64,000 nucleotides of DNA, from positions 3,488,001 to 3,552,000 of the forward strand of contig CBDBGH010000003.1 of assembly GCA_965205265.1 (NCBI GenBank). The letters run 5' to 3'. This document shows, in pieces, positions 4,488 through 32,769 of this stretch. Position 1 is the stretch's first letter; each line of letters begins with the position of its first letter. This stretch comes from Alphaproteobacteria bacterium (lineage in GTDB: Bacteria; Pseudomonadota; Alphaproteobacteria; Bin95). The position numbers and the translations under genes are program-made. Under the pieces are notes generated by a model. That model was not told the origin of the DNA, did not search any database, and saw only the letters and a list, made by a program, of their open reading frames with translations.

Positions 4488-4527
4488 CTATGAGTCGTCC
4501 CCCCTTTCGATGAAATGGAGGACGACA

Positions 4528-11449: not shown

Positions 11450-11516
11450 CCCGGCGTGGCAGGAGAAAGAGGAAAGCGAGGGTCGGGCAAGCCGACCCGG
11501 GGAGAGGAGGGAGCCG

Positions 11517-12534: not shown

Positions 12535-13470
12535 ATGAACACCATCATCGAGAACATCGACACCGTCGAGAGCACCGAGCACTCCGTCACCGCAACCGTC
12601 TGCGACAACGCCGCCCTCTTCGGCGCAACACCCGAGCGCGACGAGTTCGATCCCCGCGTCGTCTGGGACAAGGACGATGCGCTGACCGCCGTCGAGGAAG
12701 CCTTCCGCATTCTCAGCGACGGCGTCTGCCCCGACGGCACACAGCTCGCCGACGAGCGCGAACACCTGCTCTGGGGGTTCGTCAACATGCTCCACGCCCA
12801 GACACAGCGCATCGACCGCAGCGTCGACAGGCTCACCCCCGAACTCCGAGACCTCCAGCGCGACCAGGACGGAACCGAGATCAGGTCGTTCGAGCTGGAG
12901 ATGACCACCCACCGCGCGCAGAACCTCGGAGACCGCCGCGACGCCTTCGAGAAAATGCGCGACGCCTGCGCCGATGCCTACCGCGAGGAAACCGGAGAGG
13001 TCTGGCGCCCGCGCCACGGCTCGCACGCATCCCGGACCGGCAAGCTCACCTCCGCCGCCATCGAGGCCCGCGACTTCATCCGCGCACGGAAGGACCGCGA
13101 GACCATGGCCCACCTGCCGCAAGGCACCCTCGTCGCCATCGCAGGCGGCAGGGACATCGCAGACCCCGCCGCCGTCATCGCCCGCCTCGACCAGGCCCGC
13201 ACCAAGTACGCCGACATGGTCCTCGTGCACGGCGGCGGCCCCGGCGTCGAGAAGATCGCCGCACGCTGGGCCGAGCGGAACGGCGTCCACCAGATCGTCT
13301 GCAAGCCCGACTGGGACCGCCACGGACGCGCCGCGCCCTTCCGCCGCAACGACGAACTCCTCAACCTCCTGCCCAGGGGCGTCATCGCCTTCCCCGGCTC
13401 CGGCATCACAGAGAACCTCGTCGACAAGGCGAAGCAGCTCGGCATCCCGGTCATGCGCTGCCCAGCCTGA
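12535..13470 (+). CDS. DUF2493 / SLOG-superfamily protein
   Basis: AAGGAG RBS; AGGRD, LVHGG, PDWDRHGRAAPFRRN, IAFPGSGIT motifs. Confidence 0.88.
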   Translation: MNTIIENIDTVESTEHSVTATVCDNAALFGATPERDEFDPRVVWDKDDALTAVEEAFRILSDGVCPDGTQLADEREHLLWGFVNMLHAQTQRIDRSVDRLTPELRDLQRDQDGTEIRSFELEMTTHRAQNLGDRRDAFEKMRDACADAYREETGEVWRPRHGSHASRTGKLTSAAIEARDFIRARKDRETMAHLPQGTLVAIAGGRDIADPAAVIARLDQARTKYADMVLVHGGGPGVEKIAARWAERNGVHQIVCKPDWDRHGRAAPFRRNDELLNLLPRGVIAFPGSGITENLVDKAKQLGIPVMRCPA

Positions 13471-13894
13471 CCGCAGCACATCGCGGGCCGCGTCGTCATC
13501 CCGGCAGCGGGACGGCGGCGCGGCCCGTTTCCTCTTGCGCACACACTTCGCGCGGCAACGCCATCCTCGCGCGCGCTTCGTCCTGCCCCGGACCACGACC
13601 CGGGGGCTCGCTGCCCTCGCCGATCGCGTCTGCGGTCCGCTGCCGCGTCACGCGCCGCTGCACCATGCCGCCCATAAGTGCACCGGCCACTGCGCCGAAC
13701 CCGGCGCACCGCCGCCTGCGCTTCCGTCGCGCGCCCTCGCATCATGCTGCGCATGAATGCCTCGGACGCCGCGCCCGACGCCGCCGCTCACACACGCCGC
13801 GGCGGCTCCCCTCCGCCGCTCTCGCCGGCGTCGATTCCCCCATCGCTCATGCATCGCAAATCGTGCTCCGACGGGCCGCGCCCGTCTCGGTCCA

Positions 13895-13907
13895 CACACC
13901 CGACGCA
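13895..13907 (+). other. Putative unoccupied attachment core CACACCCGACGCA
   Basis: Same 13-mer as 19664 and 26633; left flank resembles the 19664 left flank, right flank resembles the 26633 right flank. Confidence 0.6.
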
Positions 13908-14221
13908 CCGATGGTGCAGGGAGAACCGTGCCGCCCATGTCCACATATGCCGCCCATGCCACGGTCACTGGAACGGGTGTCCGCCCCTGTCCGCTCCTGT
14001 CATGCCGGAAACAGTTGCCACCGATCGGTGGCGGAATGCACCGCTCGCGATCCGAAAAATAATGCTGTTTATCAACATGTTGTCGATACGCGCACCGATT
14101 GCGACCGCCGCGTGTGACGGCCGTGTTTATGGCATTCCCTGCGCACCACCGATCGGTGGCATGGACGGGCGCGCCACATGATGGCAAACTGCCAACCGGC
14201 AATCGCCTCATTCGCCCCTCG

Positions 14222-15610
14222 GAGATCGTGTTCCGAGCGGTGGTGTAAGAGCCTGGCGGCCGTCGCGGTATCCGGCGGGTAGGGCCGGTAGGCTCAGGCT
14301 GCCACGGCGGGCAGCTTGACGGTTGCATTGTCGCTCACGGGAGCGATCGATTCCAGCGTCATGTATCTGGCCCTCTGGACGGCCCATTCGTCGTTCTGCT
14401 CGAGCAGGATGGCGCCGATCAGCCGTGTTATGGCGTCCTCGTTGGGGAAGATGCCGACGGTGTTGGTACGCCGCTTGATCTCGCCATGGAGTCGTTCGAG
14501 CGGGTTTGTCGAGTGCAGCTTGGGGCGATGCGCGGCCGGGAAGGTCATGTCGGCGAGAACGTCGTGCTCGGCCTCGTCCATGAGAGCGGCGAGCTTCGGC
14601 GCCTTGGCCCTGAGCTGGTCGGCGACCTGGCGCCACTGGGCGGAGGCGCTGTCTGCATCCTCCTGGGCGAAGGCGGTGGTGACGAAGGCGGACACGACGC
14701 GCCGGCCCTGCTTGCCGGCATGGGCGAGCAGGGTGCGCATGAAGTGGACGCGGCAGCGCTGCCATGTGGCGCCGAGGACGCGCGTTGCAGCCGCCTTCAG
14801 GCCCTTGTGGTCATCGGAGACGACCAGCTTGACGCCGCGCAGGCCGCGGCGGGCCAGGGAGCGCAGGAAGGAGGTCCAGAAGGTCTCGGCCTCGGACGCG
14901 CCGATCGCCATGCCGAGCACCTCGCGGCGGCCCTGGTCGTTGACCGCCACCGCGATCGTGACCGCGACCGAGACGACGCGCCCGGCCTCGCGCATCTTCA
15001 CATAGGTCGCGTCCAGCCACAGATACGGCCAGTCGCCCTCCAGCGGGCGGTCGAGGAAGTCGCGGATCTTGCCGTCGATCTCACCGCACAGCCGCGACAC
15101 CTGGCTCTTCGAGATGCCCGACATGCCCATGGCCTGCACCAGGTCGTCCACCGAGCGGGTCGACACGCCCTTGATGTAGGCCTCCTGGATCACCGCCGTC
15201 AGCGCCTTCTCCGCCATGCGACGCGGCTCCAGGAAGCCCGGGAAGCAGCTCCCCTTGCGCAGCTTCGGGATCTTCAGCTCCACCGTGCCCGCGCGCGTCT
15301 CCCGCAAGGCCCTCCACCTCAAGCGCCATCAAACGCTCGGCCGTGAACCCGATCATCTCGCGAAGCAGATCGGCGTCCGAACTCTTCTCCAAAAGCGCCT
15401 GCAGGGTCATCATGTCCTTGGTGGTCATCGTGGTACTCCTCCGGTCGGATGGACTGTAGAAGCCCAACCCTAACCGGCACCGCGATGGCCATCCGCTATG
15501 GATAAGTGGCCCGCCGCCGCCAGACTCCACACGGTCGCGGCGCCGGGCCACTTACCCACAGCTACCGATGCTGGCTCCTGCTCCTACACCACGCCTGGGG
15601 GCACGACCTC
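14222..15610 (-). mobile_element. IS256-family element with disrupted transposase (14294..~15429)
   Basis: Mutator-type DDE motifs ([23 protein letters not shown]); N-terminus is in a different frame; imperfect IRs GAGATCGTG..GGTGTAA / GAGGTCGTG..GGTGTAG. Confidence 0.88.
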
Positions 15611-15677
15611 AGGCCGCGGACGCACCTCTCCCGTGGCGGGCCGAATCCCGCTTTCGGGGGCAGTGACGAAGGGGTGA

Positions 15678-15978
15678 TCAGGCTGCGAGACGTCGTCGTC
15701 GCTCGCGGTTGAGCGCCCGTTTGCGCTTGCGCTCGGCCTGGACTATCTCCTGCTGACGCAAGCGGCCGATGCGGATCAGGTTGCAGGCGACCACCGACAT
15801 GGCGACCATGCGTGCAAACCCGTCAGCACCGTAGGACAGGACGCGGGACATGCCGTGGTGTTCGAGCATGTTGATTGCCGACTCGATGCCGGGATGACGC
15901 TTGCGGGCGGCGACAAACTCCGGCGCCTCCTGGCGCCGGGCCTGTTCGGCCGTCGGCTTGCCCTTTTTCGGCAGCGCC
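15678..15978 (-). pseudogene. C-terminal transposase fragment (ISNCY/IS5-like)
   Basis: RKRHPGIESAINMLEHHG...VACNLIRIG pattern. Confidence 0.6.
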
Positions 15979-16321
15979 GTCAGTTCAAGCTTTGCTGACA
16001 GATCCTCATAGGTTTTTCCACTGACCGATCAGGACATCGAAGCCGGCATTGGCGACGACGACATGCAGGTGGGGATGCCAGTCGAGTCTCTGGTTCCATG
16101 TATGCAGGACGGCGGTGCCACCGATCCTGGCACCGAAACTGCGGCGCGACAATCAGCTTGAGACGCTGGCGACAATCAGGATGAGACGGGGGAAGGCGGC
16201 GGCCCGGAACGGAGGGAGGGCGTAGCCCGACCGGAGTTCCGGGCCGCCGCCTCAAAAAATTTTTCCTGGACCTTCTGGCGGGGTCGGTCGGCTGGGCGAA
16301 CGGTGACGTTTTTCCGAGTAG

Positions 16322-18669
<2,348 letters not shown>

Positions 18670-18930
18670 ACCGCTGCCGCCAGATCGGCCCAGCGGCCAC
18701 AACACTCACGGCCCGCGGGAATCGCCTCCGCGGGCCGTCTCTTCTCCGACCCGACGGCCCCCCCGCGACAATCAAAACGCTCTCCGAAAACCTTGTTTGT
18801 CGCGCCGCGACAATCAAAATCCGAAACCGCTTGCAATCCGCGCCCCGCGCGACAATCATCAACTCGCCGATGCCGCCGGGGAATCTCATCCTGATTGACG
18901 CGCGGCTCTCACCCAGATTGTCGCGCTATA

Positions 18931-19223
18931 TCGCACGCCTCGACCAGGCCCGCGCCAAGTACGCCGACATGGTCCTCGTGCACGGCGGCGGCCCCGGCGT
19001 CGAGAAGATCGCCGCAGGCTGGGCCGAGCGCAACGGCGTCCACCAGGTCGTCTGCAAGCCCGACTGGGACCGCCACGGTCGCGCCGCACCCTTCCGCCGC
19101 AACGACGAGCTGCTCAACCTCCTGCCCAAGGGCGTCATCGCCTTCCCCGGCTCCGGCATCACCGAGAACCTCGTCGACAAGGCGAAGCAGCTCGGCATCC
19201 CGGTCATGCGCTGCGCCGCCTGA
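18931..19223 (+). pseudogene. 3' part of a second, diverged DUF2493 gene truncated by IS21
   Basis: Near-identical to 13178..13470 with scattered substitutions; starts at the IS21 end. Confidence 0.88.
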
Positions 19224-19890
19224 TCCGCAACACCCTCGCGGGCCGCACCGTCGCTCCGGCGGCCGTGCGGCCCGTTCCCGCGTGCGCACACCGGTCACCG
19301 CAACGCCTTCCTCGCGCGCGCTCCGCGCCGCGCTCGGGCTCCGGCTCGCTGCGCTCGCCGACCGCGCCTGCGTTCCGCGTCACCCGCCGCTGCACCATGC
19401 CGCGCATGAGTGCACCGGCCACTGCGCCGAACCCGGCGCACTGCCGCCCGCATCGCGCGCTGCACCCGTGCAGGCGCCGCTGCGCGCGCTGCCGCCCGCG
19501 CGCCCTCGCATCATGCTGCGCATGAATGCCTCGGACGCCGCGCCCGACGCCGCCGCTCACACGCCGCGGCGGCTTCCCTCCGCCGCTCTCGCCGGCGTCG
19601 ATTCCCCCATCGTCAATGCCGCAGACTCAGCCGTCCCGACCGCCCGGGGCGGCCTCGGTTCGTCACACCCGACGCATCTGTGATGCCTTTTCGCCTTCCG
19701 GTTGGCGTTGCGGGAGGTTGCCGGGGAACCCTTGTTTTGCAACGGTTTCCGGTCTTCCCGCCTGCCGCTTCCTTGTCCTCCTGCCCGCGAGCCCGGGGCC
19801 CTGTCCAGGACACGTTGTGGCATGTCCTGCGGGTCGGGTCCACCCGTCCCGGACGCTCGGCCCCTTCCGGCGCGCCGCGGCCGGGTTCGT

Positions 19891-21165
19891 TCAGAACTGG
19901 CGCACGAAGCTGAGTTCGGCGCGGTTGCGCCGGTAGTCGAGGGCCTGGGCGTTGGTCTTGCGCTGCTCGCGGATGAGGGAGAGGCGGGGGCTGAAGCCGA
20001 GCACGGTCACGGCGCGGTTGTGGACCGAGACCGAGAGGGTCCGCGTGTCGTCCCGGCGCGGCTTGCGGTCGATGGTGCGGTGGGCGGCGCCGCCGCCCTC
20101 ATAGTCGGTGCGCTGCAGGGCGGCGCGCAGGCCGAGCGTGAAGCCGGCCGGCAGCGCCAGCGTGGCGCCGAGGCTCGCCCGCGGGCCGCTGTTGCGCCAG
20201 TGTTCGGCCCTGGCGCGGGCCCAGCTCCAGCCGGCATTGCCGCCGAGGCGCAGGATGGTCAGCGCGGCCCAGTTGGCGCCGAGCGAGACGTCGCCCACCG
20301 GGCCGTCGAGCCAGTCGCAGCCGCGGCAGTTGCGCCGGGCGGCGCCGGCGCGGGCGAAGAGCGCGAGGCGCGGCGTCAGCAGATGCTCGCCTTCGAGGCG
20401 CAGGCCGACGCTGTCGGTCTCGGGCCGGCCGGCGGTCCATTGCCGGTCCGCGGTCGCCAGCAGGCTCGCTTCGGTGCGGGCGTCGATCAGCCAGCGCGGG
20501 CCGACATGGGCGGCAAGGAAATGCCGGTCGAACTCCCCGCCCCTGTATTCCCGGACGCTGGCGTCCGCCCCGGCGCGCAGGCGCAGGCGGTCGTTCAGCG
20601 GATGCTGGTATTCGCCGCCGCCCCAGAAGGAGACGCCGAGGCCGGATTCGGGCTTCGCGGGATCGTCCAGGGTGAAAGGCAGCCGGCCGAACGGGGTGTC
20701 GAGGAAGACCGTGCGCTCGCCCGAGGCGGCGTTGAGGTTGCTGTCCGGGACGATGGCCGCCCCGAACCACGCCTCCCAGCGCCGCCGCGCGCGGATGATG
20801 TCGAGGAAGCGCCGGATGTTGGCGGCGACCGCCGGGGGCACGTCGCCCGCCAGCACCTGCTCGAAATGCCGCCGCGCCAGCGTGTCCTCCTCCTTCAGGA
20901 AGAAGGCGCGGGCGAGTTCGAGACGCACCCGCACCAGCTCCGGGCGGTCCACCAGGATGGCCCGGAAGGCGGCGACCGCCTCGTCGAGCCTGCCCTCGCG
21001 GGCTTCCCGGTCCGGTGCGGCATCGGCGGCGGCAAGCGCCTCCATCCCGGCCCGGAAGCGCATGTCGGTCGCATCCTGGCCCAGGGCGGGGCGCGCGACG
21101 GGCGCCGCAACAAGCAGGACCGACAGCCCCGCCAGCACGGGAACAAGGAACCGGAAAGGTCTCAT
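19891..21165 (-). CDS. Slam-type (DUF560) outer-membrane translocon, type XI secretion
   Basis: Signal peptide; TPR-like RVRLELARAFF..ARRHFEQVL; PDSNLN barrel start; terminal ELSFVRQF with final Phe. Confidence 0.9.
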   Translation of the reverse strand: MRPFRFLVPVLAGLSVLLVAAPVARPALGQDATDMRFRAGMEALAAADAAPDREAREGRLDEAVAAFRAILVDRPELVRVRLELARAFFLKEEDTLARRHFEQVLAGDVPPAVAANIRRFLDIIRARRRWEAWFGAAIVPDSNLNAASGERTVFLDTPFGRLPFTLDDPAKPESGLGVSFWGGGEYQHPLNDRLRLRAGADASVREYRGGEFDRHFLAAHVGPRWLIDARTEASLLATADRQWTAGRPETDSVGLRLEGEHLLTPRLALFARAGAARRNCRGCDWLDGPVGDVSLGANWAALTILRLGGNAGWSWARARAEHWRNSGPRASLGATLALPAGFTLGLRAALQRTDYEGGGAAHRTIDRKPRRDDTRTLSVSVHNRAVTVLGFSPRLSLIREQRKTNAQALDYRRNRAELSFVRQF

Positions 21166-21204
21166 CGCGTCTGTCGCATCGCTTGCCGTCCGGGCTCCCG
21201 ATCG

Positions 21205-21239
21205 AAAAAGAAGGGCGGCGCAGGAAACGCGCCACCCTT
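21205..21239 (-). terminator. Intrinsic terminator between the lipoprotein and Slam genes
   Basis: Minus strand AAGGGTGGCGCG-TTTCC-TGCGCCGCCCTT followed by CTTTTT. Confidence 0.65.
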
Positions 21240-21296
21240 GTCACGACCGGGAACCGGGCCGGCCTCCCGCATGAACGGGAGCCCGGCCCCGTGCGG

Positions 21297-23945
21297 CTAC
21301 TCCGTCGTCGGCGTCTGAAGCTCCGTGCCGAAGGCGCCGACCATCCGGTGGGTGCCGCCGTGTTCGGCCTGGAACTTGCCCATGATCGCGGTCGGATGGT
21401 TGCTGCCGTCGCCGCCATTCTCAACCGTGCCGGGCTTGTCGTCATACAGGTTGGCCACCCAGCTCCCGGCCGGCGCCGCCTTGTTGCCGTTGATCGACCA
21501 CACCGTCTTTTCCGTGTTGACGATGTGGCCCTTCTGGGCATCGGTGGCCAAGCTGGGGTCGGTGGTCCAGGCCGCCTTGTTCAACGTCACGCTCCAGTCG
21601 TTCTTCATCCCGTTTTTCAGCCTGAAGTCGTGGATCGTGCCGGTCAGGCCCGTGTCGGCGTTCAGGTTGGCGGTCCCGAACTGGGCCTTCAGCGTGGCCG
21701 TCGCCGTGAACTCGCCACCGCCGCCCTTCTCGTTGAGCGGGTCGTTGATGGCGTACCAGCCGATCGCGGGGCCCTCATAGGTCGCCGCCCTGCCTCGGTT
21801 GACGTTCAGGCTCTTGCCGTCCGTGGCGAGATCGACGCCCCCGCCGACGGACTGGTAGAAGGCGCTGACCGCCGCCGGCATGCCGTCGGCGTCGTTCCGC
21901 ACCCACCAGCCGAAGTACATGTAGCTGAGGTCCCTTTCCAGCACCTTCGCGCCCGCGTCGTGGACGAAGTACCAGTCGGCGGACATGAAGTAGCCGCCGA
22001 ACCCGCCTCCTCCGACCCCGGTCTCGACCGTGCAGGTGCCGCTTGCGGGGCAGAAGTAGTTGCCCGGCGCGCCGTAGTAGGTGCCGGGGACCTTGATCTC
22101 CGCGCCCCCGTCGGCCGGCTTCGGAGCGGTCACGGACCCTATCCCGACGGTCCACTTGTCGAACGTGGCGGATGCGATCGCCCGGTCGACCCCGGTGCCC
22201 AGGGTCAGTCTGCGCGCGTGTTTTGGGCCGCTGTTGCCGGATACGAACGGCTCGTAGGTCCCCTTGTTGATCCAGTCGGTGTCGTCCTTGAAGAACTTCG
22301 CGGCATCCATCGGGACGACACCCCATCTCTCCAGCGGGCCGCCCTGCCGGTCGTTGTACACCCGGACCTTGTCGGTGACCTTCATGCTGCCGGAGCCGGT
22401 GGTCCTTTCGTAGTGCGTGACGTTCCACCGGCCCACCTTGTCCATGGTCGTGTCGTGCCCGGGGCGCCCCTCCGCGCCGTGCCTGAAGTACACGGCGGTG
22501 TGGGTGTTCGCAGTCGCGATGCTCCCCGCGCCGGCCGCGGGGTCGATGCGGAAGTCCCCCCGCTCGCCCCTCTGACCGGTCGCCTCCGCCGGGGCGTCGT
22601 GCTGGCTATCGGTGATACTGGTGATGTAGTACGGGACGGTCGCGAGGTTGTTCAGCGCGTTCACCGGGGCCGTTGTGTCATCGGACGGACCCATCGCCGC
22701 GTACAGCGCCCGGCCCATCCTGTGCCCGTCCATGCGCGCCGTCTTGGCGTCGCCGAAGGCGTCCTCCTGCAGGGCGAGCCTCGTGCGCAGCAACTCCTTG
22801 TTGGCCTCGGGGATGTTCGCGTCCGCGATCGCCGTCTTGGCCGCCGCGATGGCGGCTTCGACGTCGGTCACGGTGCTTTCCTCGGACAGGGACGTGATCC
22901 TGGCGATCGCGTCCATGACCGCCTTAATCTCGCCGTCCGTGATCGTCGTGACGACGCCGGCGATGCGGGTCTCCTCGGCCTTGGCCGCCATGCGGGAGTC
23001 CTTGGCCCGGTCGAGCGCGCCCTGATGCATGGCAATCTTCGAGCGAAGCTTCGCCTTTTCAGACTCGGGGATGTTTGCGCCCTCGATCTCCGCCTTGGCC
23101 GCGTCGATGGCGGCCTGGGCGTCCGTCACGGTGTCGTCGCCGGACGTGTTCGTGACCATCTTGACCGCCTCCATGGCCGCCGCGACCTGGGTGCCCTCGA
23201 TGTTCTTGACAACATGATCGTGGTAATGGCCCTGCGCCGTCTTGATCTGCCCGTCGTCAGCGTCCGCACGGTCCGCCTGAGCCTGATACCGGTCCTTTTC
23301 GTCGTCGGTCAGATCCTCGGCGCCCGCGATCGCCGCTTTCAGCTCTCTGAGAGCGGCCATGGCGGCGTCGAGCTGCGCCTTCGTGGGCGTCACGCCCGCA
23401 AACGCCGCAAGAGCCATGTCGAGCTTTCCGGAAGCCCCCGAAAGCGCGTTCATCTGCTCTTTCCGGTCCACGGCTGTCTGGGCACTGGCCAGTTGCGTCC
23501 GATACGTCGCCTTGTTGGCATCGCTCACGTCGCCCGCATCGTCCAGCGCCTCCTTGAGAGCCGCGATGGCCGCCTTGGCCGCGGCGAGCTTGTCCGCGTC
23601 CGACAGGTCGGACGTGTCGACCTCGGCGAGCGCGTCCATCAGCGCCTTCTTCTGATCCATCTCGCGAGCCATCGTCGCCAGCACCGTCTTGCGCGCCGCA
23701 GCCGCCGCCTGAAGCTTCGCGAGCTCCTCGCCGGAAACGCCGGCCGTTGCATCGGCAACGGCCTTGTCGACCGCAGCGTCCGTCGTGGCCGCCTTGATGG
23801 CCGCGTCCGCCTTCTGGTAGGGCGTCTGCGTCTGCGCCGGCATCTGCGTCGTCGTCGACGGCGAGCTTCCGCCCCCGCCGCAGCCGGCAAGCCCCAGAGC
23901 CGTGGCGGCCATGACCGCGATCGCCCAATGCTTCACAATTCTCAT
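21297..23945 (-). CDS. Surface lipoprotein with TbpB-like barrel (type XI secretion cargo), copy 2
   Basis: Identical translation to 87..2735; directly upstream of Slam. Confidence 0.88.
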   Translation of the reverse strand: MRIVKHWAIAVMAATALGLAGCGGGGSSPSTTTQMPAQTQTPYQKADAAIKAATTDAAVDKAVADATAGVSGEELAKLQAAAAARKTVLATMAREMDQKKALMDALAEVDTSDLSDADKLAAAKAAIAALKEALDDAGDVSDANKATYRTQLASAQTAVDRKEQMNALSGASGKLDMALAAFAGVTPTKAQLDAAMAALRELKAAIAGAEDLTDDEKDRYQAQADRADADDGQIKTAQGHYHDHVVKNIEGTQVAAAMEAVKMVTNTSGDDTVTDAQAAIDAAKAEIEGANIPESEKAKLRSKIAMHQGALDRAKDSRMAAKAEETRIAGVVTTITDGEIKAVMDAIARITSLSEESTVTDVEAAIAAAKTAIADANIPEANKELLRTRLALQEDAFGDAKTARMDGHRMGRALYAAMGPSDDTTAPVNALNNLATVPYYITSITDSQHDAPAEATGQRGERGDFRIDPAAGAGSIATANTHTAVYFRHGAEGRPGHDTTMDKVGRWNVTHYERTTGSGSMKVTDKVRVYNDRQGGPLERWGVVPMDAAKFFKDDTDWINKGTYEPFVSGNSGPKHARRLTLGTGVDRAIASATFDKWTVGIGSVTAPKPADGGAEIKVPGTYYGAPGNYFCPASGTCTVETGVGGGGFGGYFMSADWYFVHDAGAKVLERDLSYMYFGWWVRNDADGMPAAVSAFYQSVGGGVDLATDGKSLNVNRGRAATYEGPAIGWYAINDPLNEKGGGGEFTATATLKAQFGTANLNADTGLTGTIHDFRLKNGMKNDWSVTLNKAAWTTDPSLATDAQKGHIVNTEKTVWSINGNKAAPAGSWVANLYDDKPGTVENGGDGSNHPTAIMGKFQAEHGGTHRMVGAFGTELQTPTTE

Positions 23946-24109
23946 GAACCCTTCTCCTTTCAGCAGGAACGCCTCGCCGGTCCCCGATGCAAACTCCGGG
24001 CAAAGTGTAGGTGGAACGCAGGGCGTGTCAACAAACTAAAACACTTCATGCGCCGTTCCCTCATGCGAGCCCCAGCGCAGGCGGAGCATAGGCGGACAGG
24101 ACGGGAGAA

Positions 24110-25267
24110 TCAACAACTCCGGAGCTTCCGCTCGACCGCCACCGCCACCCGCTCGGCGGCTTGGCCGAGGGTCGCGTCGTCGAGATGGACATAGCGGTTC
24201 GTCGTGCTGGCCCGGCGGTGTCCGAGCAGGCGTCCTGCGACATGCAGGCTTTCGCCATTCATGACGGCGTGCGAGGCATGCGCATGTCGCAGGTCATGAA
24301 GCCGCGCATCCGCCACGATCCCGGCCGCATCGCGCGTCGTGGTCCAGAAATAGTGGAGTTCGTTGCTGCCCAACGGCCCGTCTCCGCTCCTGCCCGGAAA
24401 CACACATTCCCCGGACGCCGATTCGGCGAGGCCGGCCAGCAACGCCCGCGCCGCTTCGCCCAGCAGAACGTGCCTCGGGCCCGTCTTGGTGTCGGGCAGC
24501 GCGAGCCGGTCCGGCTTGACCTCGCACCAGCGCAGGCGGCGAATCTCCCCCGGCCGGCACCCGGTCAGCAGGAGCAGGCGCACCGCCGCGGCGCAGACCG
24601 GGTGTTCGGCCTCGCGCTCGCGCAGCACCGCGCCCAGCTTCGCCAGATCGTCCGCACCCAGCAGCCGCCCGCGCGGCGGACGCCGGTAGCGGACGATGCC
24701 CGTGCACGGGTTCCCGGCGGCCTCGGGCCGATGACCCCACGCGACGGCGCAGTCGAACATGTTGCGAAGGATGTCATGGGCGCGGTTCGCCCCGCCCGGC
24801 CTCCGCCGCCCGTAGTCGTGGAAGAAGCGGGCAATGTCGGCCCGCACGACCGCGCCGACGCGCAGATGGCCGAGCGCGGGCAGGATGGCGCTGTCGAGGT
24901 AGCTCAGGGTCGCCTGCACCGTGGACGGCTTCCAGGACGGGGCGCGCCGCTCGACATATTCCACGGCGAACTTCGCCAGCGTCGGGCCGGAAGCGGGAAG
25001 GGGCAGAGAATCGCCGACGCCCTTCTCGCGGGCGAGGAAGGCGAGCGCCGCAGCGCGCGCCCGGTCGGCCTTTACCGCCTCCGGCCTGCCGAGCGTGACC
25101 CGGCACGGCTTGCCGTCGCGCCGGAAGCGGAACACCCAGGATCGCGCGCCGTTGGGCTGGACGCGCAGCATGAAGCCCTGAAGGGCGGTATCGTGGACGG
25201 CGTATTCGCGTTCGCGCGGACGGGCCGCGAGCGCGAGCGCATCGGTCAGCCGGGCGCGTTCGGTCAT
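24110..25267 (-). CDS. Tyrosine integrase 2 with N-terminal arm-binding domain (385 aa)
   Basis: MTERARLTD start overlaps integrase 1 stop; DTALQGFMLRVQPNGARSW arm domain; TGCRPGE, HDLRH, LGH..TNRY. Confidence 0.92.
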   Translation of the reverse strand: MTERARLTDALALAARPREREYAVHDTALQGFMLRVQPNGARSWVFRFRRDGKPCRVTLGRPEAVKADRARAAALAFLAREKGVGDSLPLPASGPTLAKFAVEYVERRAPSWKPSTVQATLSYLDSAILPALGHLRVGAVVRADIARFFHDYGRRRPGGANRAHDILRNMFDCAVAWGHRPEAAGNPCTGIVRYRRPPRGRLLGADDLAKLGAVLREREAEHPVCAAAVRLLLLTGCRPGEIRRLRWCEVKPDRLALPDTKTGPRHVLLGEAARALLAGLAESASGECVFPGRSGDGPLGSNELHYFWTTTRDAAGIVADARLHDLRHAHASHAVMNGESLHVAGRLLGHRRASTTNRYVHLDDATLGQAAERVAVAVERKLRSC

Positions 25268-26415
25268 CGGTCCGCCTCCCCGCCGTCGAGCATGGCGGCA
25301 AGGCCGCGCGAGACCCGGTTCGCGGCCTCGAACACGGAGCCCTCGGCAAGGTGCGCATAGCCGAAGGTGGTCTGGATGTCGGCATGGCCGAGCAGCCCGG
25401 CGACGATGCGCAGGCCCTCGCCGCCGCCGACCGCGACCGCCGCATAGCTGTGGCGGAGATCGTGAATGCGCAGCGTCGGCAGACCCGCCGCCGCGCGGAC
25501 CGCGTTCCATGCCCTGTCCACCGTCGCAGGGCCGCCGCAGGGAGACGCGAACACCCACGGGCAGTCGTCGCGCCGGGGTTGCGCCGCGAGCACGGCGCGG
25601 GCGGGCGATGCGAGCCGGATCGTGCGCGGACCGGTCTTGCTGTCGGGCAACACAACACGGTCGCCGTGGACATGCTCCCACCTGAGCCGCAGAGCCTCGG
25701 ACTTGCGCGCGCCGGTATGGAGCAGGAAGCGCAGCGCGGCGACGGCGACCGGCCATTCCGCTTCCGCGCCGTCGAGCGCCCGCCCAAGCGCGGCGAACTC
25801 GTCGTCCGTCAGGTAGTGCGCCTCGAAGCCGGTCCTGCGCCGCCGCAGCCCCTTGCACGGGTTGGAGTCCTCGCGCCGCAGGCCGAGCGCCTCCGCGTGC
25901 TTCATCATCGACGACAGCACCGCCAGCGCCCGGTTCGCCGATCCCGCCCGCCTGGCCGACAGATCGTCGAACCAGTTGTGCACATCTTTCGCGCCGATCG
26001 AATCGACGCGCCGACCGCCAAACACGGGCAGGATGAAGCGGTTCATGCCGTCCGCGTGCGCGCGCCGCGTCGCCGGCTTCCAGCGTTCGGCGCAGTCGGC
26101 GAGGAACGCCGGCGCGAACGTCCGCACCGTCGGCACCGTCGCCGGTGCGCCGCCCGTCTCCGCATCGGCGAGCAGCGCTCGCGCCGCGTGCCGCGCATCC
26201 TCGACCGTCAGTTCGTCGAGCGCGCCGAGCGTCCGCCTGACGACGGAGCCGCCCGCGCGCCGGTGCACGATCCATGTCTTGCGCCCTTTCGCCCGCACCC
26301 GCAGGCCGAGGCCCGGCGCGGCGCTGTCCCACAGCACGGCCTCGCGCCCGTCCGCAGCAGCGAAGGCGCGCGCCCGCGCCTCGGTGATCTTCGTCCTCTT
26401 CGTTCCGTTCGGCAT
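25264..26415 (-). CDS. Tyrosine integrase 1 with N-terminal arm-binding domain (383 aa)
   Basis: WDSAAPGLGLRVRAKGRKTW arm domain; TGARKSE, HDLRHSYA, LGH..TTFGY. Confidence 0.92.
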   Translation of the reverse strand: MPNGTKRTKITEARARAFAAADGREAVLWDSAAPGLGLRVRAKGRKTWIVHRRAGGSVVRRTLGALDELTVEDARHAARALLADAETGGAPATVPTVRTFAPAFLADCAERWKPATRRAHADGMNRFILPVFGGRRVDSIGAKDVHNWFDDLSARRAGSANRALAVLSSMMKHAEALGLRREDSNPCKGLRRRRTGFEAHYLTDDEFAALGRALDGAEAEWPVAVAALRFLLHTGARKSEALRLRWEHVHGDRVVLPDSKTGPRTIRLASPARAVLAAQPRRDDCPWVFASPCGGPATVDRAWNAVRAAAGLPTLRIHDLRHSYAAVAVGGGEGLRIVAGLLGHADIQTTFGYAHLAEGSVFEAANRVSRGLAAMLDGGEADR

Positions 26416-27069
26416 CTTCCGACCCCTTCCCTTGTCTGCCGGTCGCAGGAGCCCCCGTTGGGGAACACCCAGGACACGCCGGGGAACGGCGTCGGGTTCG
26501 AAGATCGGAAGGGCCGGAAGTGCCGCACTCAAACGCCGCGCGGGCTGCAAGCCATTGTCAGAACTGGCCTTGCGGCGCTTCGCGGATGCGGGGGCGGAGT
26601 GATGATTTCTACGCCCTTCGGCGCGTGGTTCTCACACCCGACGCACCGCTGGCGCCCTCAGATCCAGGCGCGCGCCTGGCATGTCTTGCCTGCGTTTTCA
26701 GCGCCCTGAAACGACACGGTGTTGATGGGCGGAGTTGCCCCCGATCGGGGGTCCGGCGCAGTCAGACTGACTGCACGGAATCATCCGCCGAATCAAGGTC
26801 TTGCACACCCCGTCCATCGGCCGTGTGACGGCGTGTTGCGCGATCATGCGCATCAGCCCGGGAAATCCCCTATGGAGCAGTCAATCCGACTGCGCGCCCG
26901 GCTGCGCCCACTGTTGACAGCAGTCACTCCGACGGTACGGCCGGAACCGCTGTCGGGCCGGCTCCGCCGCATCAGGGGACGCCCGGCGGTGTTTCGTTGG
27001 CTACCGGTTTCGGTCTGGCCGTCGTACCATGCGGAGATGGAATCCGCACGGGAGGAGGCCCGGAGATCA

Positions 27070-27408
27070 ATGGCCGAGACGTTCACGAGGACCATCCGGG
27101 TCACGCCGGAGCAATGGGAGCGGATCGAAGAGGCCGCCAGGGAACGCGAGGTTTCCGCCAACCGGCTCGTCGTCGACCTCGCCATGGCGGCCCTCGACCG
27201 GCGCCCATGGCCGCGCACCGAACTCGACATCCAGGTCGCCAAGGCCGCCCTGTTCGCCGCCCAGGTCCTGCGGCGCGGTCTCATTGCCGACGGACGCGAG
27301 GCCGAGGTCGAGGACATCATGCGGTTCGTTTCGACATTGACGCCCGAAGGCGCCGCCAGCCCGGTGCCGTTATTCGACCCGCCGCCTCGGCCATCCGACC
27401 TTCGATGA
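27070..27408 (+). CDS. Ribbon-helix-helix-like DNA-binding protein; 3' end replaced by IS256 remnant
   Basis: TRTIRVTPEQWERIEEAAREREVSANRLVVD beta-alpha-alpha pattern; GGAG RBS. Confidence 0.6.
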   Translation: MAETFTRTIRVTPEQWERIEEAAREREVSANRLVVDLAMAALDRRPWPRTELDIQVAKAALFAAQVLRRGLIADGREAEVEDIMRFVSTLTPEGAASPVPLFDPPPRPSDLR

Positions 27409-27602
27409 TCTCGGCCAGCGCCTGGCGCCCGAGCGGGCGATAACCCTCGCCCCACTCCAGTCCGTCTGCCTGCATCTCCTTCACCACCTCAAACGCCTGC
27501 GGTAGGCTCATGATCGTCGCAGCTTGCTGGGACATGCGGGGTGCTCCTGCTTGTGATTGTCATCACCACAGGGAGGCCCCCTTTCTGCCTGACACATAAA
27601 TT
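27382..27602 (-). pseudogene. 5' remnant of an IS256 element (sibling of 54411..57390); its outer IR is displaced to 29609..29619
   Basis: MSQQAATIMSLPQAF... identical to the 56190 transposase N-terminus. Confidence 0.88.
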
Positions 27603-29518
27603 CCTGACTTCGACGGTTGGGCTGACTTCTGACCGATCTCGCGTCTGGAGTTTTCAGTAAAGCCAATGAGTTGGCAGTTGCGGTGCGGTCAAGCTGCGTT
27701 GTAGTGCCTAGTAAATCTTTGAGACTGTCAATGCCTCCGCCACGCGCTACACTCCCCCCATGTTCGTGCGCATCAAGACCTCCCCCAACAGCCCGCGACG
27801 CTCGGTCCAGATCGTCGAGGCCGTGCGCGACGGCGGCAAGGTCCGACAGCGCATCGTCCGCCATGTCGGCGTGGCCATGGACGAGGACGAGCTCGAGCGC
27901 CTGAGGCAGCTCGGCGAGTACGTCAAGGCGAAGCTGGAGGACGAGCGTCAGCCGGCATTGTTTGCGCCCGAGAAGATCGCTGAGCAGGCGATCCGTGTCG
28001 GCCGCCGGGGGGACGGCAAGGAGGAACTCCCGGTCGACCTCAAGCAGCTTGAAGAGGAGCAGCGCCTGATCACAGGCATCCACGAGGTCTATGGCGAGAT
28101 CTACCGGCTGCTGGGCCTCGACGCGCTGCTGCCGCGCTCGCGCTACCGGGCCTCCCATGACGCGCTGTTCCATGTGGTGATGGCGCGGGTAGCCAACCCC
28201 GACAGCAAGCGGGGCAGCGTGCGCCGGCTCGAGGAGGACTTCGGCGTGAGTCTTCCGCTCGAGAAGGTCTACCGGATGATGGATCAGCTCGACGCGACGG
28301 TGATCGAGCGACTGCGCACGCGCGTCGGCGAGGCGAGCCGGTCGCTGCTGCCGGAGCCGGTCGCGATCCTCTTCTTCGATTGCACCACGCTCTACTTCGA
28401 GACGGCCGCCGAGGACGAGCTTCGCCAGCACGGCTTCAGCAAGGACGGCAAACACAAGGACTCGCAGGTTCTGCTGGCGCTGATGGTGACGCGCGAAGGG
28501 CTGCCGATCAGCTACGAGGTCTTCCCCGGCGCCACCTACGAGGGACACAGCATGGTCCCGGTCCTGCAGGACATGCAGCGCCGCCACCAGGTGGAGCGCA
28601 CGGTATGCGTGGCCGACCGGGGCATGCTGAGCGCCGACAACCTCGACGCCATGGACGCCATCGGCGGCGAGTATGTCGTCGGCGCGCGGCTGCGCAAGCT
28701 GCCGCTCGCGCTGCTGGGGCAGGTTCTCGACCCCGGGACCTATGCCCCGCTGGAGGGCTCACAGGACCGCCGGGTCGGCGAGTGGGAGTACAAGGGCCGT
28801 CGCCTGATCGTCGTCTTCTGCCCCCAGCGCGCACGCAAGGACGCGCACGAGCGCCGCCATCAGGTGGAACGCCTGCTCGACAGGCTGGCCCGCAGCGACA
28901 ATCCCAGGGAACTGCTCTCCAATCACGGGGCGAAGCGCTTCATCGCCGTCGAGGGCGACGCACGGCTCACGGTGAACCCGGAGAAGATCGCCGAGGCCGC
29001 ACGATGGGACGGGCTCACCGGCGTCATCACCAATCTGCGCGACGCGCGCGTCACCGAAGTGATGGCTCACTACCAGGGGCTCTGGCAGGTCGAGGAGAGC
29101 TTCCGGATCACCAAACACGACCTGAAGATACGTCCCATCTGGCACTGGAACCCGGACCGGATCCGCGCTCACATCGCCATCGCCTTCCTGGCCTTCGCCT
29201 GCGTTCGACACCTTGCGTACCGCGTCGCCATCCAGAAGCGGCGGATGTCCCCGGAGGTCATCCGCTCCGCCCTCGTCCACCGCCAGTGCTCCCTGCTGCG
29301 CTGTCGGCAATCGGGCAACCGCTACGTCATCCCCTCGAAGCCGACACCGGCGGCGGAGCAGATTTACGCAACCATGGGGCTGCCCCTGACGATCACCCCG
29401 TATCAACTCGCCTGACCGTCGACGAAGCACGGCTCGAAGAAATGCCGGATGTAGTGCCTAGCCGAAATGAGAACCAGGCAATATCAACTACTTATGCGAA
29501 TCAACCGTCGAAGTCAGG
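27603..29518 (+). mobile_element. IS1634-family element with 90-bp target duplication
   Basis: 17-bp perfect IRs CCTGACTTCGACGGTTG; direct repeat 27513..27602 = 29519..29608. Confidence 0.92.
27760..29415 (+). CDS. IS1634-family transposase
   Basis: FFDCTTLYFE, GFSKDGK, VADRGM, YQGLWQVEESFRITKHDL.IRP motifs. Confidence 0.93.
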   Translation: MFVRIKTSPNSPRRSVQIVEAVRDGGKVRQRIVRHVGVAMDEDELERLRQLGEYVKAKLEDERQPALFAPEKIAEQAIRVGRRGDGKEELPVDLKQLEEEQRLITGIHEVYGEIYRLLGLDALLPRSRYRASHDALFHVVMARVANPDSKRGSVRRLEEDFGVSLPLEKVYRMMDQLDATVIERLRTRVGEASRSLLPEPVAILFFDCTTLYFETAAEDELRQHGFSKDGKHKDSQVLLALMVTREGLPISYEVFPGATYEGHSMVPVLQDMQRRHQVERTVCVADRGMLSADNLDAMDAIGGEYVVGARLRKLPLALLGQVLDPGTYAPLEGSQDRRVGEWEYKGRRLIVVFCPQRARKDAHERRHQVERLLDRLARSDNPRELLSNHGAKRFIAVEGDARLTVNPEKIAEAARWDGLTGVITNLRDARVTEVMAHYQGLWQVEESFRITKHDLKIRPIWHWNPDRIRAHIAIAFLAFACVRHLAYRVAIQKRRMSPEVIRSALVHRQCSLLRCRQSGNRYVIPSKPTPAAEQIYATMGLPLTITPYQLA

Positions 29519-30039
29519 ATCGTCGCAGCTTGCTGGGACATGCGGGGTGCTCCTGCTTGTGATTGTCATCACCACAGGGAGGCCCCCTTTCTGCCTGACA
29601 CATAAATTCTTACGTCACCCGTCGTAGGCCGGCATTTGCCTTCGGCCTTCGTGTATTCTATACAGGGAGTCGGCATGGTTTGCTGCCGCCTTGCGACCGC
29701 AATCAGTCCGTTACAGGGGTAAAGTCATGACGAACACTGCAAGCGGTAGGGGTCAGGACATGACCGCCCTCACGTGCGCGCGACCTTCGTGCCCCCCCCC
29801 CGGCAGGTAATCGGGCGGCTTTCGTGCGTCCGCACCTTGGCTCTTGAGCGGCGTTCTGGCGGGGTCCGCCTGACGCAAGCTCTCCCGACGACACCCCGCT
29901 TGTTTGAACATGACATCGGAACTGCTGCGGGTTTCCGGGACGGAACCGGCTTCGAGCCTCGCCCGTGGCGCAATCGAATCCGGCACCGCTTCACAGCGCC
30001 AACGGCGGGGTGGCGGCCTCACCAAACGGAGAATGGATC

Positions 30040-32136
30040 ATGACAGTCGAAGGCATCACGCTACGCGGCGGTGAGGCGGCCGATACCCTGACGGGCGGCG
30101 ACGGCAATGACCAACTCCATGGCGGCGCCGGCGGCGACACCCTCGACGGCTGGTCCGGCAATGACACCGTGCATGGCGATGCGGGCAACGACACCCTCTA
30201 CGGCGGCGACGGCAACGACACGCTTGACGGCGGCGAGGGCGTCGACACGCTGTGGGGCGGACGGGGCAACGATACCCTGAAGGGTGGCAGGGGCGATGAC
30301 TGGATGTCGGGCGGCCTCGGCGCCGACACCTTCGCGTTCGCGGTCGGGGACGGACACGACAAGATCTCCGACTTCGAGGACGGCGACACCATCAGGGTCA
30401 CCGGCGTATCCGGGGGCTTCGAGGCGCTGGTCATCGAGCAGGACGGCGCCGATACCGTCATCCGTTACGGCGACGGCGACAGCATCCGATTGTCGAACGT
30501 GTCGGCGGCGTCGCTGACAAAGGACCGCTTCGAGTTTCCTGCCGCCGAGGGTAACCCGCAGGGCGGTGAAGACGACGACGACACCCCGAACGGCGGCGAG
30601 GGCGACAGCGACGGGGGAGGCGAAGGCCCCGCCCAGGAGCAGGTAACCCGGACGGAAAGCGACGGGGACGGCGTCGCCCCGCAGAAGGCCGCCGGAGTGA
30701 CGCGGAAGGGCGGCAATGGCGCCGATACCCTCGACGGCGGCGACGGCGACGACACCCTGAAGGGCCGCGGGGGCGCCGACACGCTGAACGGCGGCAAGGG
30801 CAACGACCTCCTGAAGGGCGGCAATGGCGCCGACACCCTGAACGGCGGTCTCGGCGACGACACGCTCAGGGGCGGCCGGGGCGACGACACCTTCGTGTTC
30901 AAGGCTGGAGACGGCCACGACACCATTGCCGATTTCGTAGACGGCGACACGATCCGCCTTGATGGCGTGACTGGCGGGTTCGCGGCACTGGTCATTGAGC
31001 AGGACGGGGACGATGCCGTCGTCCGCTACGGCGACAGGGTCGACACCATTCGGCTCAAGGGCGTCTCGGCGGACTCCCTGGATGAAGACGACTTCTCGCT
31101 GCCGGACAGCTCTGGCGGCGGCGACAAGGTCGCATACGGCGCCGGCCAGCGGGACAAGGCTGCGACCGCGTCGACCGGCGAGGAGACACAGAAATCTGGC
31201 ACCGGCGCTACCGGGAACACCGGGAACGTGCCGGAACCCAAAGGCGTCACCGTGACCGGCGGCGACGGCGACGACCATCTCTGCGGCGGTCTGGGCGACG
31301 ACCACATCACCGGTGGCGGCGGAGACGACATCCTGGAAGGCAAAGCAGGCAACGACACTGTTCACGGCAACGATGGCGACGACCGCGTCTACGGCGGCGG
31401 CTGGGCTGGCTTCAACGACGACGGCGACGACACACTCTACGGCGGCGCCGGTGCAGACATCGTCGTCGGCGGCAACTGGGGCATTCACGTCCTTCTCCGC
31501 GACGGCGACGACGGCGACGACACGCTCTACGGCGGCGATGGCGACGACACCCTCGTCGGTGGCCACTGGGGCCATGGCACCACCACCAAGGGCGCCGGCG
31601 ACGACGGCAACGACACCCTCTACGGCGGCACCGGCAACGACTTCCTCATCGGTGGCAACTTCGACAGCAAGAGCAACCGCACCAACGACGGCGAGGACGG
31701 CAACGACACACTCTACGGCGGCGATGGCGACGATACCCTCGTTGGCGGCAACTGGGGCAACGAGGTTCACTGGGAGCTGTCGCGGATGGACGGTGATGAG
31801 AAGGTCGTAGAACAATCCGGAGTTTGGCCATGGAGTGGCGATGTCGGCAACGGCGCTGACACCCTCGTCGGCGGCAAGGGCAATGACGTGCTGTGGGGCG
31901 GTGGCGGCGCCGACAGGTTCGTGTTCGATCGGGAATCCAACACCGACACTATCTGCGACTTCGAAGACGGAGTGGATACCCTCGTCATCCAGGGCGGCAT
32001 GAAGTTCACCGATCTCGACATCAAGCAAATCGGCGATCACGCCGTGATTAACGGCCCTGCCGATGCCTTCTCGATCGTGATCGAGGACTTCGATGCGTCA
32101 CTGCTGACCGCGGCCGATTTCGATTTCGTCGCCTGA
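30040..32136 (+). CDS. RTX / hemolysin-type calcium-binding repeat protein
   Basis: Many GGxGxDxLx nonapeptides; three D.F.F...DTI.DF modules; C-terminal LTAADFDFVA T1SS-like tail. Confidence 0.9.
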   Translation: MTVEGITLRGGEAADTLTGGDGNDQLHGGAGGDTLDGWSGNDTVHGDAGNDTLYGGDGNDTLDGGEGVDTLWGGRGNDTLKGGRGDDWMSGGLGADTFAFAVGDGHDKISDFEDGDTIRVTGVSGGFEALVIEQDGADTVIRYGDGDSIRLSNVSAASLTKDRFEFPAAEGNPQGGEDDDDTPNGGEGDSDGGGEGPAQEQVTRTESDGDGVAPQKAAGVTRKGGNGADTLDGGDGDDTLKGRGGADTLNGGKGNDLLKGGNGADTLNGGLGDDTLRGGRGDDTFVFKAGDGHDTIADFVDGDTIRLDGVTGGFAALVIEQDGDDAVVRYGDRVDTIRLKGVSADSLDEDDFSLPDSSGGGDKVAYGAGQRDKAATASTGEETQKSGTGATGNTGNVPEPKGVTVTGGDGDDHLCGGLGDDHITGGGGDDILEGKAGNDTVHGNDGDDRVYGGGWAGFNDDGDDTLYGGAGADIVVGGNWGIHVLLRDGDDGDDTLYGGDGDDTLVGGHWGHGTTTKGAGDDGNDTLYGGTGNDFLIGGNFDSKSNRTNDGEDGNDTLYGGDGDDTLVGGNWGNEVHWELSRMDGDEKVVEQSGVWPWSGDVGNGADTLVGGKGNDVLWGGGGADRFVFDRESNTDTICDFEDGVDTLVIQGGMKFTDLDIKQIGDHAVINGPADAFSIVIEDFDASLLTAADFDFVA

Positions 32137-32172
32137 CCGGTTTCGCCAACGTTAACCAACGGGGAATGAACG

Positions 32173-32769
32173 ATGACGGCTCATGAAATATGGAAATCTT
32201 ACCAGGAAAAGGCGAAAGCGGCTTTTCTGGATTTGGTCCTGCCGTTCATGCCTGCTGAACCCGGCGGTCCGAGCTACTTCAACAGCGACATCTTGACCGA
32301 CGGCAGGCTGGATGACTCGCTCAAGGGCGGCGACGGCGAAGACACGCTCAGGGGCGGGCGGGGCAATGACACGCTGCACGGCGGCAAGGGCGACGACGAT
32401 CTGTACGGCGGCAAGGGCGACGACACGCTGGACGGCAACTGGGGCGACGATACGCTCACCGGCGGCAAGGGCAACGACACGCTCACCGGCAGCTGGGGCG
32501 CGGACCGCTTCGTGTTTCGCGACGGCGACGGCCATGACACGATAACCGACTTCTGGCCAACGAAGGTCAAGGACCACAGCGGGAAATTCGTCGGGTGGGA
32601 CCACAACAAGATCGTGATCAAGGGCGGCAAGGCGTTCAGCGATCTGACCATCATCGAGAACGCGGACGGCGACGCCGTGATCACGGGTTACGGCACGGAT
32701 TCCAGCATCACGCTTGAGGGCGTTGCCGCGTCGGACGTGACGGAATCGGACTTCGACTTCCTGGGCTGA
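32173..32769 (+). CDS. Small RTX calcium-binding repeat protein
   Basis: About six GGxGxD repeats; C-terminal ITLEGV..SDFDFLG. Confidence 0.85.
   Translation: MTAHEIWKSYQEKAKAAFLDLVLPFMPAEPGGPSYFNSDILTDGRLDDSLKGGDGEDTLRGGRGNDTLHGGKGDDDLYGGKGDDTLDGNWGDDTLTGGKGNDTLTGSWGADRFVFRDGDGHDTITDFWPTKVKDHSGKFVGWDHNKIVIKGGKAFSDLTIIENADGDAVITGYGTDSSITLEGVAASDVTESDFDFLG

Follow-up and report, generated by a model that had tools for sequence, protein, structure and literature searches.

How does a four-gene unit for surface-protein export come to lie within a predicted origin of conjugative transfer, and which enzymes placed it there? The question is raised by a window of 64,000 nucleotides, the whole stretch of DNA analysed here, from an alphaproteobacterial genome of three contigs and 5.70 Mb. 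Between two exact copies of a 14-bp direct repeat, TCACACCCGACGCA, the window holds exactly four co-oriented genes on the minus strand: int1 and int2 for tyrosine integrases, a gene for an 882-aa lipoprotein and a gene for Slam, an outer-membrane protein of the type XI secretion system (T11SS). The initial annotation had described this arrangement correctly, without naming the strand, and had read the repeat as the attachment (att) core of the integrases. This last point is not borne out, as the repeat matches the nick core of a MOBF-type origin of transfer (oriT) and its recombination by the integrases is unsupported. We propose that the unit is an integrative mobilisable cassette docked inside a conjugative oriT, with its integrases as the recombinases, and give this reading roughly even odds (a probability of about 0.5).

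The two repeat copies lie at 19663-19676 and 26632-26645, and a third with one mismatch lies at 13894-13907. At up to two mismatches, the window contains five matches versus 0.92 expected, a number reached in one of 100 shuffles. In the genome, the 14-mer is found exactly at 10 places and with one mismatch at three. Moreover, it forms the 3' end of a conserved site of ~135 nt. A profile from seven copies of this site gives 19 matches in the genome and 37, of which 32 are distinct, when the search takes in loci from five other genomes. Two classes of site can be told apart, one after DUF2493 in SSB-Toprim-DUF2493 gene modules (its part left of the predicted nick is termed A_D) and one upstream of int1 (A_int); the two site halves are only ~60% alike outside the core. 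A chance repeat beside ordinary prophage-type integrases could be suspected only from the short length of the repeat, and the conserved site with its 19 genomic matches, the end of identity at the repeat in several loci and the existence of empty alleles (see below) make it extremely improbable.

On the minus strand, the site reads as a hairpin with a 5-bp stem, followed directly by a motif ending in GGGTGT and then by GA. The IR2 hairpin and nick region of plasmid R388 stand in the same register, with TGCGT and GT.T unchanged in F, in R388 and in five of the sites. A site variant from genome G011 agrees with the F plasmid in 13 of 14 positions (2156-2169 of locus L055), within the part of the oriT region that separates the SLT gene from traM, where 0.03 matches of this level are expected per 5 kb, and the F nick is reported within the matched motif, before GGT (PMC3074121). 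The small hairpin is paired in 88 of 90 cells across 18 sites, a level that none of 500 shuffles reaches, and one of its pairs is UA in 10 sites, CG in four and GC in four, a compensatory change in 8 of the 18. The left half of the site holds a larger hairpin of varying sequence. Judged by these sequence features, the 14-bp repeat is best read as the predicted nick core of a MOBF-type oriT. With nicks predicted at 19664/19665 and 26633/26634, the unit measures 6,969 bp from one to the other.

Genes for conjugation are present in the genome, with nine TrwC-family relaxase genes above the cut-off, five coupling-protein matches and VirB4-like AAA_10 ATPases; PF03135 and PF03432 have no match there. 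Five sites lie 1-12 kb from a TrwC gene. Full elements that combine TrwC, coupling protein, VirB4-like ATPase and the site are found at 2.546-2.581 Mb and 4.716-4.737 Mb, the second of which (4715627-4736768) runs in the order VirB4-like ATPase, coupling protein, TrwC, origin, int1, int2'. A search for att repeats of the element at 2.546-2.58 Mb returned only chance-like 14-20-mers. The conjugative backbone proposed in the initial annotation as the target is thus real for some copies; others of the SSB-Toprim-DUF2493-site modules are short remnants among housekeeping genes, with no transfer genes nearby. Within the modules, SSB, Toprim, DUF4326/NADAR and DUF2493 all point to the origin. The relaxase genes are convergent, not downstream. 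In the F layout, leading-region genes read towards the origin and enter the recipient first on the transferred strand. If the repeat is an oriT nick core, the SSB-Toprim-DUF2493 genes would, by analogy, form a leading-region module, and the minus strand would be the one that is transferred.

Downstream of DUF2493, the cassette has been inserted into a conserved site. On its left, the resident half-site A_D (19552-19664, plus strand), delimited by an nhmmer site model, alignment with 17 other sites and hairpin folds, lies 3' of a DUF2493 fragment and consists of a conserved 5' box and a variable hairpin up to the predicted nick; on the putative transferred (minus) strand it is 3' of that nick. 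The Slam-side end of the cassette carries a small IR2-like inverted repeat with a 5-bp stem (19674-19686, plus strand), on what would be the relaxase-binding side of the origin. At the other end lies the cassette's own half-site A_int (26523-26633, plus strand), a homologue of A_D that is upstream of int1 and divergent from it. The resident right flank (26646-27408, plus strand) begins with another IR2-like repeat and continues into orfR (26719-27408), for which matches are limited to weak ribbon-helix-helix (RHH) or NikA-like ones (E 0.014-0.07).

Relatives of the right-flank sequence from 26646 onward occur in 11 of the 31 genomes searched; the empty alleles belong to other species, with ~75% nucleotide identity in the flank. 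In four of six loci fetched (L045, L046 and L047 of G011; L050 of G013), DUF2493, site and orfR are contiguous; L048 has the site and no orfR match, and L049 has orfR and no site. In the alignment, the left junction of the window matches the left half of the empty site and the right junction matches its right half. The spacing from core to orfR is ~420 bp both in the window and in the uninterrupted loci. Since other species hold DUF2493-site-orfR uninterrupted and the junctions match its halves, the cassette interrupts a resident locus. Both the insertion downstream of DUF2493 and the empty alleles had been anticipated, and the latter are found in other species of the genus with homology in both flanks. 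The site at 13894, which had also been taken for an empty one, belongs to a second backbone in the window (SSB 9773-10210, Toprim 10301-11449, DUF2493 12358-13470; site 13786-13918, plus strand). It does have DUF2493 and the left half of the site and is unoccupied, but its right flank differs from that of the cassette.

In the uninterrupted backbone of L045 (G011), the genes after orfR (11041-17999) encode an AbiEi/AbiEii pair, an SNF2-type helicase and an MmeI-like methyltransferase, that is, defence-type cargo adjoining the origin. The 3' end of a tRNA or tmRNA gene was considered as target and rejected, given that the window has no tRNA gene and no copy of the core adjoins any of the 88 tRNA/tmRNA genes called in the genome. 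An Rfam search of 13500-27500 gave a single chance miRNA match (E 0.38) and no known RNA family at the site. The genome also has ~30 tRNA genes within 7 kb of contig C3 (5094894-5101696), beside a normal scattered set, and two permuted tmRNA genes with different tags (C3 4192777 and 5292698).

The unit recurs in many contexts. Pieces of it are numerous in the genome at 99.5-100% identity, alongside more diverged Slam and lipoprotein paralogues. C3 5152759-5159393 equals window 20013-26647, and C3 5345950-5351435 equals 21166-26647, its Slam gene (5340244-5341718) having been split off by an IS21-family insertion. Three copies extend, in window equivalents, from 19484/19657 to 24496/24500 and two pieces from 24445/24480 to 26645. 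The second copy noted earlier in the window is present at 100% identity to 21211-24496 (1-3286, minus strand) and is partial: it contains the lipoprotein gene and the last 129 codons of int2, breaks at a hot spot within int2, and is cut off by the left end of the window. In the genome it spans the equivalent of 19484-24496, without int1 and most of int2.

In several loci, identity between copies stops at the repeat at both ends. At the int side, five junctions in the genome show four different outside flanks, two of the junctions belonging to one segmental duplication; the Slam-side end follows at least three site subtypes, or at least four with a metagenome-assembled genome (MAG) of an Alphaproteobacteria bacterium. 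This MAG has five loci with Slam at 97% identity and the cassette at 95-96% nucleotide identity. Its loci L031, L033 and L035 add three further right flanks as well as further left subtypes, one of which is the subtype of the unoccupied site at 13894; no TrwC gene lies within the 10-kb flanks of the MAG cassettes. Together, the copies of both genomes have at least seven different right flanks and at least four left flanks. Furthermore, the 7-kb unit occupies two kinds of resident origin, one followed by orfR and the other by an integrase pair. The cores flanking L035 differ after TCACACC (CGA versus GGAA), which places the exchange within or to the left of this heptamer. The cassette is also found in six public runs from three studies, all as Logan contigs, four of which were compared; the run contigs break off at 24483-24495 and at 26640/26641, where the borders of repeats would make them stop. 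A megablast search of PLSDB returned no plasmid relatives of cassette or backbone. The idea of a minimal ~7-kb element that delivers surface proteins holds as far as a discrete unit of fixed genes in many flanks is concerned, and lacks support in its other part, the recombination of the repeat by the integrases.

Alternatively, the unit might be a by-product of the accretion and shuffling of integrative and conjugative element (ICE) and integrative and mobilisable element (IME) modules in a genome ridden with insertion sequences (IS), multiplied through segmental duplication and through recombination among the repeated origins and integrase genes, and now immobile. C3 5152745-5166449 and 5345950-5358490 are indeed one 13-kb segmental duplication, including 2,106 bp at 100% identity. 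Several copies break at the conserved int2 stretch and are chimeric with other integrase alleles, IS21-family and other IS elements interrupt many copies, and a single intact copy is left in the genome. With site halves only ~60% alike outside the core, general recombination would hardly have put the joint into the same 14 bp in seven or more contexts and in two genomes, nor does this explanation fit the occurrence of the same 7-kb unit in two resident origin kinds. We regard it as improbable.

Two observations on these rearrangements stand apart. Within the 13-kb duplication, the cassette lies head to head with a chimera of int1', hybrid int2, lipoprotein and Slam, and the chimeric cassette is flanked by inverted nick cores. 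The int2 hot spot (24483-24496, coding PDTKT; also window 3273-3286 and C3 5323045) has at least four different joints, two of which resemble the ends of one insert with the 14-bp stretch at both ends, another integrase pair at one side and the AT-rich sequence at window 3287 at the other; the insert ends are unique in the genome.

Next, we turn to the integrases. Both int1 (25264-26415, minus strand; 383 aa if translation starts at the ATG at 26415, or possibly longer from a TTG at 26550) and int2 (24110-25267, minus strand; 385 aa) have the Pfam domains Arm-DNA-bind_3, Phage_int_M and Phage_integrase. The stop of int1 overlaps the start of int2 in the ATGA at 25264-25267, and the catalytic R, K, HxxR, H and Y are legible by eye in both translations, in agreement with the initial annotation of a translationally coupled pair with intact R-HxxR-H-Y residues. 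The two proteins share 39% identity. Tandem groups of at least two integrases are a trait of the genus, with 17 counted in this genome and pairs also in relatives; no int1 orthologue above 47% identity is found in 40 other genomes. In the window, int1 is 217 bp from the core and reads away from the joint. Pairs of int1' and int2' (43% identical to int1 and 41-58% identical to int2, respectively) similarly follow the core after ~270 bp and read away from it in this genome, in G005 (L019/L020) and in G011 (L046). An integrase pair thus abuts the joint in two independent architectures, which is the usual att-int layout. It is for this reason that we favour the integrases as the recombinases.

The cassette mechanism could then be pictured as follows. 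The resident locus would be a MOBF-type oriT between a leading-region module and the small RHH-like orfR. The cassette would bear both halves of an origin, A_int beside int1 and the hairpin with the nick motif after Slam. In a circular form, A_int would join the Slam-side hairpin-and-motif end, and the circle would thus hold one complete oriT. Once integrated, the cassette would be flanked by two hybrid origins in direct order that share the 14-bp nick-site core, and strand exchange by one or both cassette recombinases would take place in the invariant TCACACC of the core or next to it. Either the excised circle or the whole host element with the cassette in it might then be transferred by a resident TrwC-type relaxase and mating machinery, and Slam with its variable TbpB-fold lipoprotein may alter the surface of the recipient. 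Excision, transfer and the identity of the enzyme that makes the joints are the inferred parts of this scheme.

A number of observations weigh against it. The joint lies exactly at the relaxase nick motif, which is the product expected of a relaxase and not of an integrase. By eye, neither inverted core-type binding sites nor dyad symmetry are seen around the joint, and the two reconstructed arms share two 10-mers, compared with a mean of 0.65 and a maximum of six in shuffles, so that arm-type repeats do not stand out. The cassette has no room for an open reading frame encoding an excisionase. All three int1-bearing copies of the MAG (L031, L033, L035) share an internal deletion of residues ~229-337, so that the stretch containing the catalytic R, K and HxxR is lost, and similar deletions are present in three of the four runs compared (X2, X4 and X5), where contigs skip from 25405 to 25627. 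Since the MAG carries the cassette in five loci despite this shared deletion, int1, at least, would be dispensable. In the genome, all copies except that in the window are IS-cut or chimeric, so that it alone is whole, and no empty site is seen in the same strain. The circle junction whose search the initial annotation had suggested was likewise not seen: neither a ~6.97-kb circle nor a healed-site joint is among the 15 joints listed of 24 in the public Logan contigs, which as contigs cannot show absence.

Several of these points would be accounted for if a TrwC-type relaxase, rather than the integrases, created and resolved the joints, an explanation that we consider possible, if rather unlikely. 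A nick at the right-hand origin and termination at 19664/19665 would yield a single-stranded circle with one origin, and recombination between origins or integration would then dock the unit in another origin. The integrases would serve another step or be remnants of a leading end such as that of the element at C3 4.71-4.74 Mb; because the 4.73 Mb element places A_int-int1-int2 after TrwC and origin, this arrangement could be an ordinary leading end. The coincidence of the joint with the predicted nick fits this explanation, as do the nine TrwC genes, the cassette's want of an excisionase and of visible dyad symmetry, and the spread of MAG copies with internally deleted int1. The conserved repeat is near the size of the minimal TrwC target (14+3 nt), and for TrwC both recombination between two copies of oriT and the integration of incoming DNA at an oriT copy, also one in a chromosome, are reported (PMC3264647). 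In addition, the window can be seen as a tandem array of three origin-bounded units (13894, 19663 and 26632), the first of which has no integrase. The relaxase leaves unexplained why integrase pairs abut the joint in two architectures, and the differing triplets beside the nick motif of the two partners in L035 would require one relaxase with two specificities. F TraI, whose nick motif is the closest, does not carry out this recombination according to the same source (PMC3264647), and no natural element using the relaxase route was found in the literature searched. Still more tentatively, one may imagine a natural relaxase-run gene-cassette system, in which MOBF origins act as docking platforms: nick-to-nick units would pile up there in tandem and pass from one element to another. 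We think this unlikely.

What the cassette carries is consistent with an export module. Slam (19891-21165, minus strand; 424 aa) matches PF04575, SlipAM, with E 1.7e-18 and 67.6 bits against a cut-off of 22, and TPR_Slam with E 2.7e-6, under the family cut-off. Slam of this type occurs in all 16 other genomes of the genus and in one of 24 searched outside it. Of 20 loci fetched for their Slam homologues, seven have an integrase pair or fragment no more than 2 kb from Slam; all seven come from G005, where Slam is convergent with the pair. The exact co-oriented four-gene unit is found only in this genome, the MAG and the public runs.

The adjacent lipoprotein (21297-23945, minus strand; 882 aa) starts with an N-terminus in which ALGLAGC is recognisable by eye as a lipobox, followed by alanine-rich helical repeats with a period of 258 nt. 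It has no sequence-level match in Pfam, NCBIfam or PDB. A FHBP_C match at E 0.046 in one of 50 relatives is the only link in sequence to the TbpB families. The C-terminal 283 aa define a family of 1,129 cluster representatives (E up to 0.001), and the 150 members listed are proteins of 156 to 1,274 aa with the match at their C-terminal end. A model of this region built on 50 sequences is all-beta (predicted local distance difference test score, pLDDT, 83.1; predicted template-modelling score, pTM, 0.72). Compared with 48,161 solved chains (VIA-align search), it matches best the C-domain of NHBA (Z 12.5, root-mean-square deviation 3.1, 138 residues aligned), followed by fHbp (Z 12.3), the TbpB C-lobe (Z 10.5 and 10.2), HphA/hemophilins (Z 9.5-9.8), HpuA (9.4), PmSLP (9.2) and LbpB (9.1). 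The top matches are thus surface lipoproteins from Neisseria, Pasteurella and related bacteria, and include several proteins known as Slam/T11SS cargo; from Z 9.8 down, generic 8-stranded membrane barrels also appear. The model supports a TbpB/fHbp/NHBA-type handle and 8-stranded barrel in the C-terminal domain, by fold and not by sequence, as had been suggested from the initial annotation of a TbpB-barrel lipoprotein beside Slam. The lipoprotein may be exported by the cassette's Slam. The cargo variability expected of such a unit is also seen: between the window genome and the MAG, the lipoprotein is the most variable gene product (92% amino acid identity, versus 97% for Slam and int2), and its differences cluster near the N-terminus, at residues ~541-600 and at the C-terminal end.

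The remainder of the window holds further mobile and repetitive DNA. A recombinase-in-trio-like element (4380-8122) has tyrosine recombinase genes at 4054-6108, 6105-7034 and 6740-8023 and perfect inverted repeats of 108 bp (4380-4487 and 8015-8122), and is inserted in backbone that is contiguous in other copies. An IS21-family element at 16140-18930 has ~35 near-identical copies in the genome. A DDE_Tnp_1 IS at 27602-29519, with ~70 genome copies, is flanked by direct repeats of 96 nt (27508-27603 and 29514-29609), a third copy of which lies inverted at 56124-56217. At 29965-32600, a large gene for an RTX-type protein contains dozens of 27-nt repeats coding for nonapeptides; a similar gene adjoins another copy of the backbone (C3 3206143-3208441).

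Elements that resemble the proposed cassette are known, and the statement in the initial annotation that its architecture is undescribed was too strong. IME_oriTs of streptococci and staphylococci are bounded by direct repeats and integrate in the oriT of a host ICE, which serves them as both host and helper (Libante et al., 2020; PMC7563843). Like them, the cassette is small, repeat-bounded and cargo-bearing and is inserted in the predicted oriT of a host element. IME_oriTs as described there are elements of Firmicutes that target MobT (Rep_trans) origins and have a single integrase with an excisionase and their own relaxase, whereas the cassette belongs to an alphaproteobacterium, lies in a MOBF-type origin and has two coupled integrases, no excisionase and an origin copy of its own; none of its four genes encodes a relaxase, and the Rep_trans relaxase that defines an IME_oriT is absent. 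The iOriTs (Ares-Arroyo et al., 2026, preprint; 10.64898/2026.01.13.699239) are islands with integrase and oriT but no relaxase or mating apparatus, presumed to hitch-hike on co-resident conjugative elements. The cassette shares with them an integrase and a predicted oriT, the lack of relaxase and mating-pair genes and a virulence-type or surface cargo. In that preprint they are chromosomal, use ordinary att sites and come from six nosocomial species, whereas the cassette is attached at an origin nick core inside an element.

The TrwC/R388 reaction (PMC3264647) is similar in that direct origins flank the insert, the joint is at the nick, hairpin and motif have the same layout and the target is ~17 nt; it is a laboratory reaction of a plasmid relaxase, and the cassette has integrases in addition. 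The T11SS loci of Grossman et al. (2025; PMC12282271) likewise place a DUF560 protein beside a lipoprotein with a variable N-terminus, handle and 8-stranded barrel, the variable part being long helical repeats in the cassette lipoprotein. That paper reports co-occurrence of T11SS with transposases and treats mobile islands in general, and the word "integrase" is absent from its main text; unlike the loci described there, the Slam-lipoprotein pair here is the whole cargo of a defined 7-kb unit. No paper was found in a literature search that combined the name Slam with "integrase", nor did the literature searched yield any account of a Slam unit carried by an origin-docked cassette. To our knowledge, no natural gene cassette moves by TrwC-type oriT recombination. 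Genomic islands accrete in tandem at one attachment site, as in tRNA-gene islands and in the accretion of cis-mobilisable elements (CIMEs) and ICEs. The units in the window, which end in a row in the same repeat (13894, 19663 and 26632), resemble such arrays, except that the site is a predicted transfer origin.

If the cassette reading is correct, MOBF origins of Gram-negative bacteria would serve as attachment sites for hitch-hiking cassettes, a role previously described only for the IME_oriTs of Firmicutes. The unit would also be a concrete vehicle for the spread and swapping of Slam-dependent lipoproteins, whose link to mobile DNA has hitherto been statistical only. Should the joints instead be the work of a relaxase, relaxase-run cassettes would amount to an integron-like platform driven by an HUH enzyme, one unit of which is a surface-protein export module. 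Either way, the locus would offer a natural system in which relaxase-made and integrase-made joints at a nick site can be told apart, as the two predict different mutant phenotypes.

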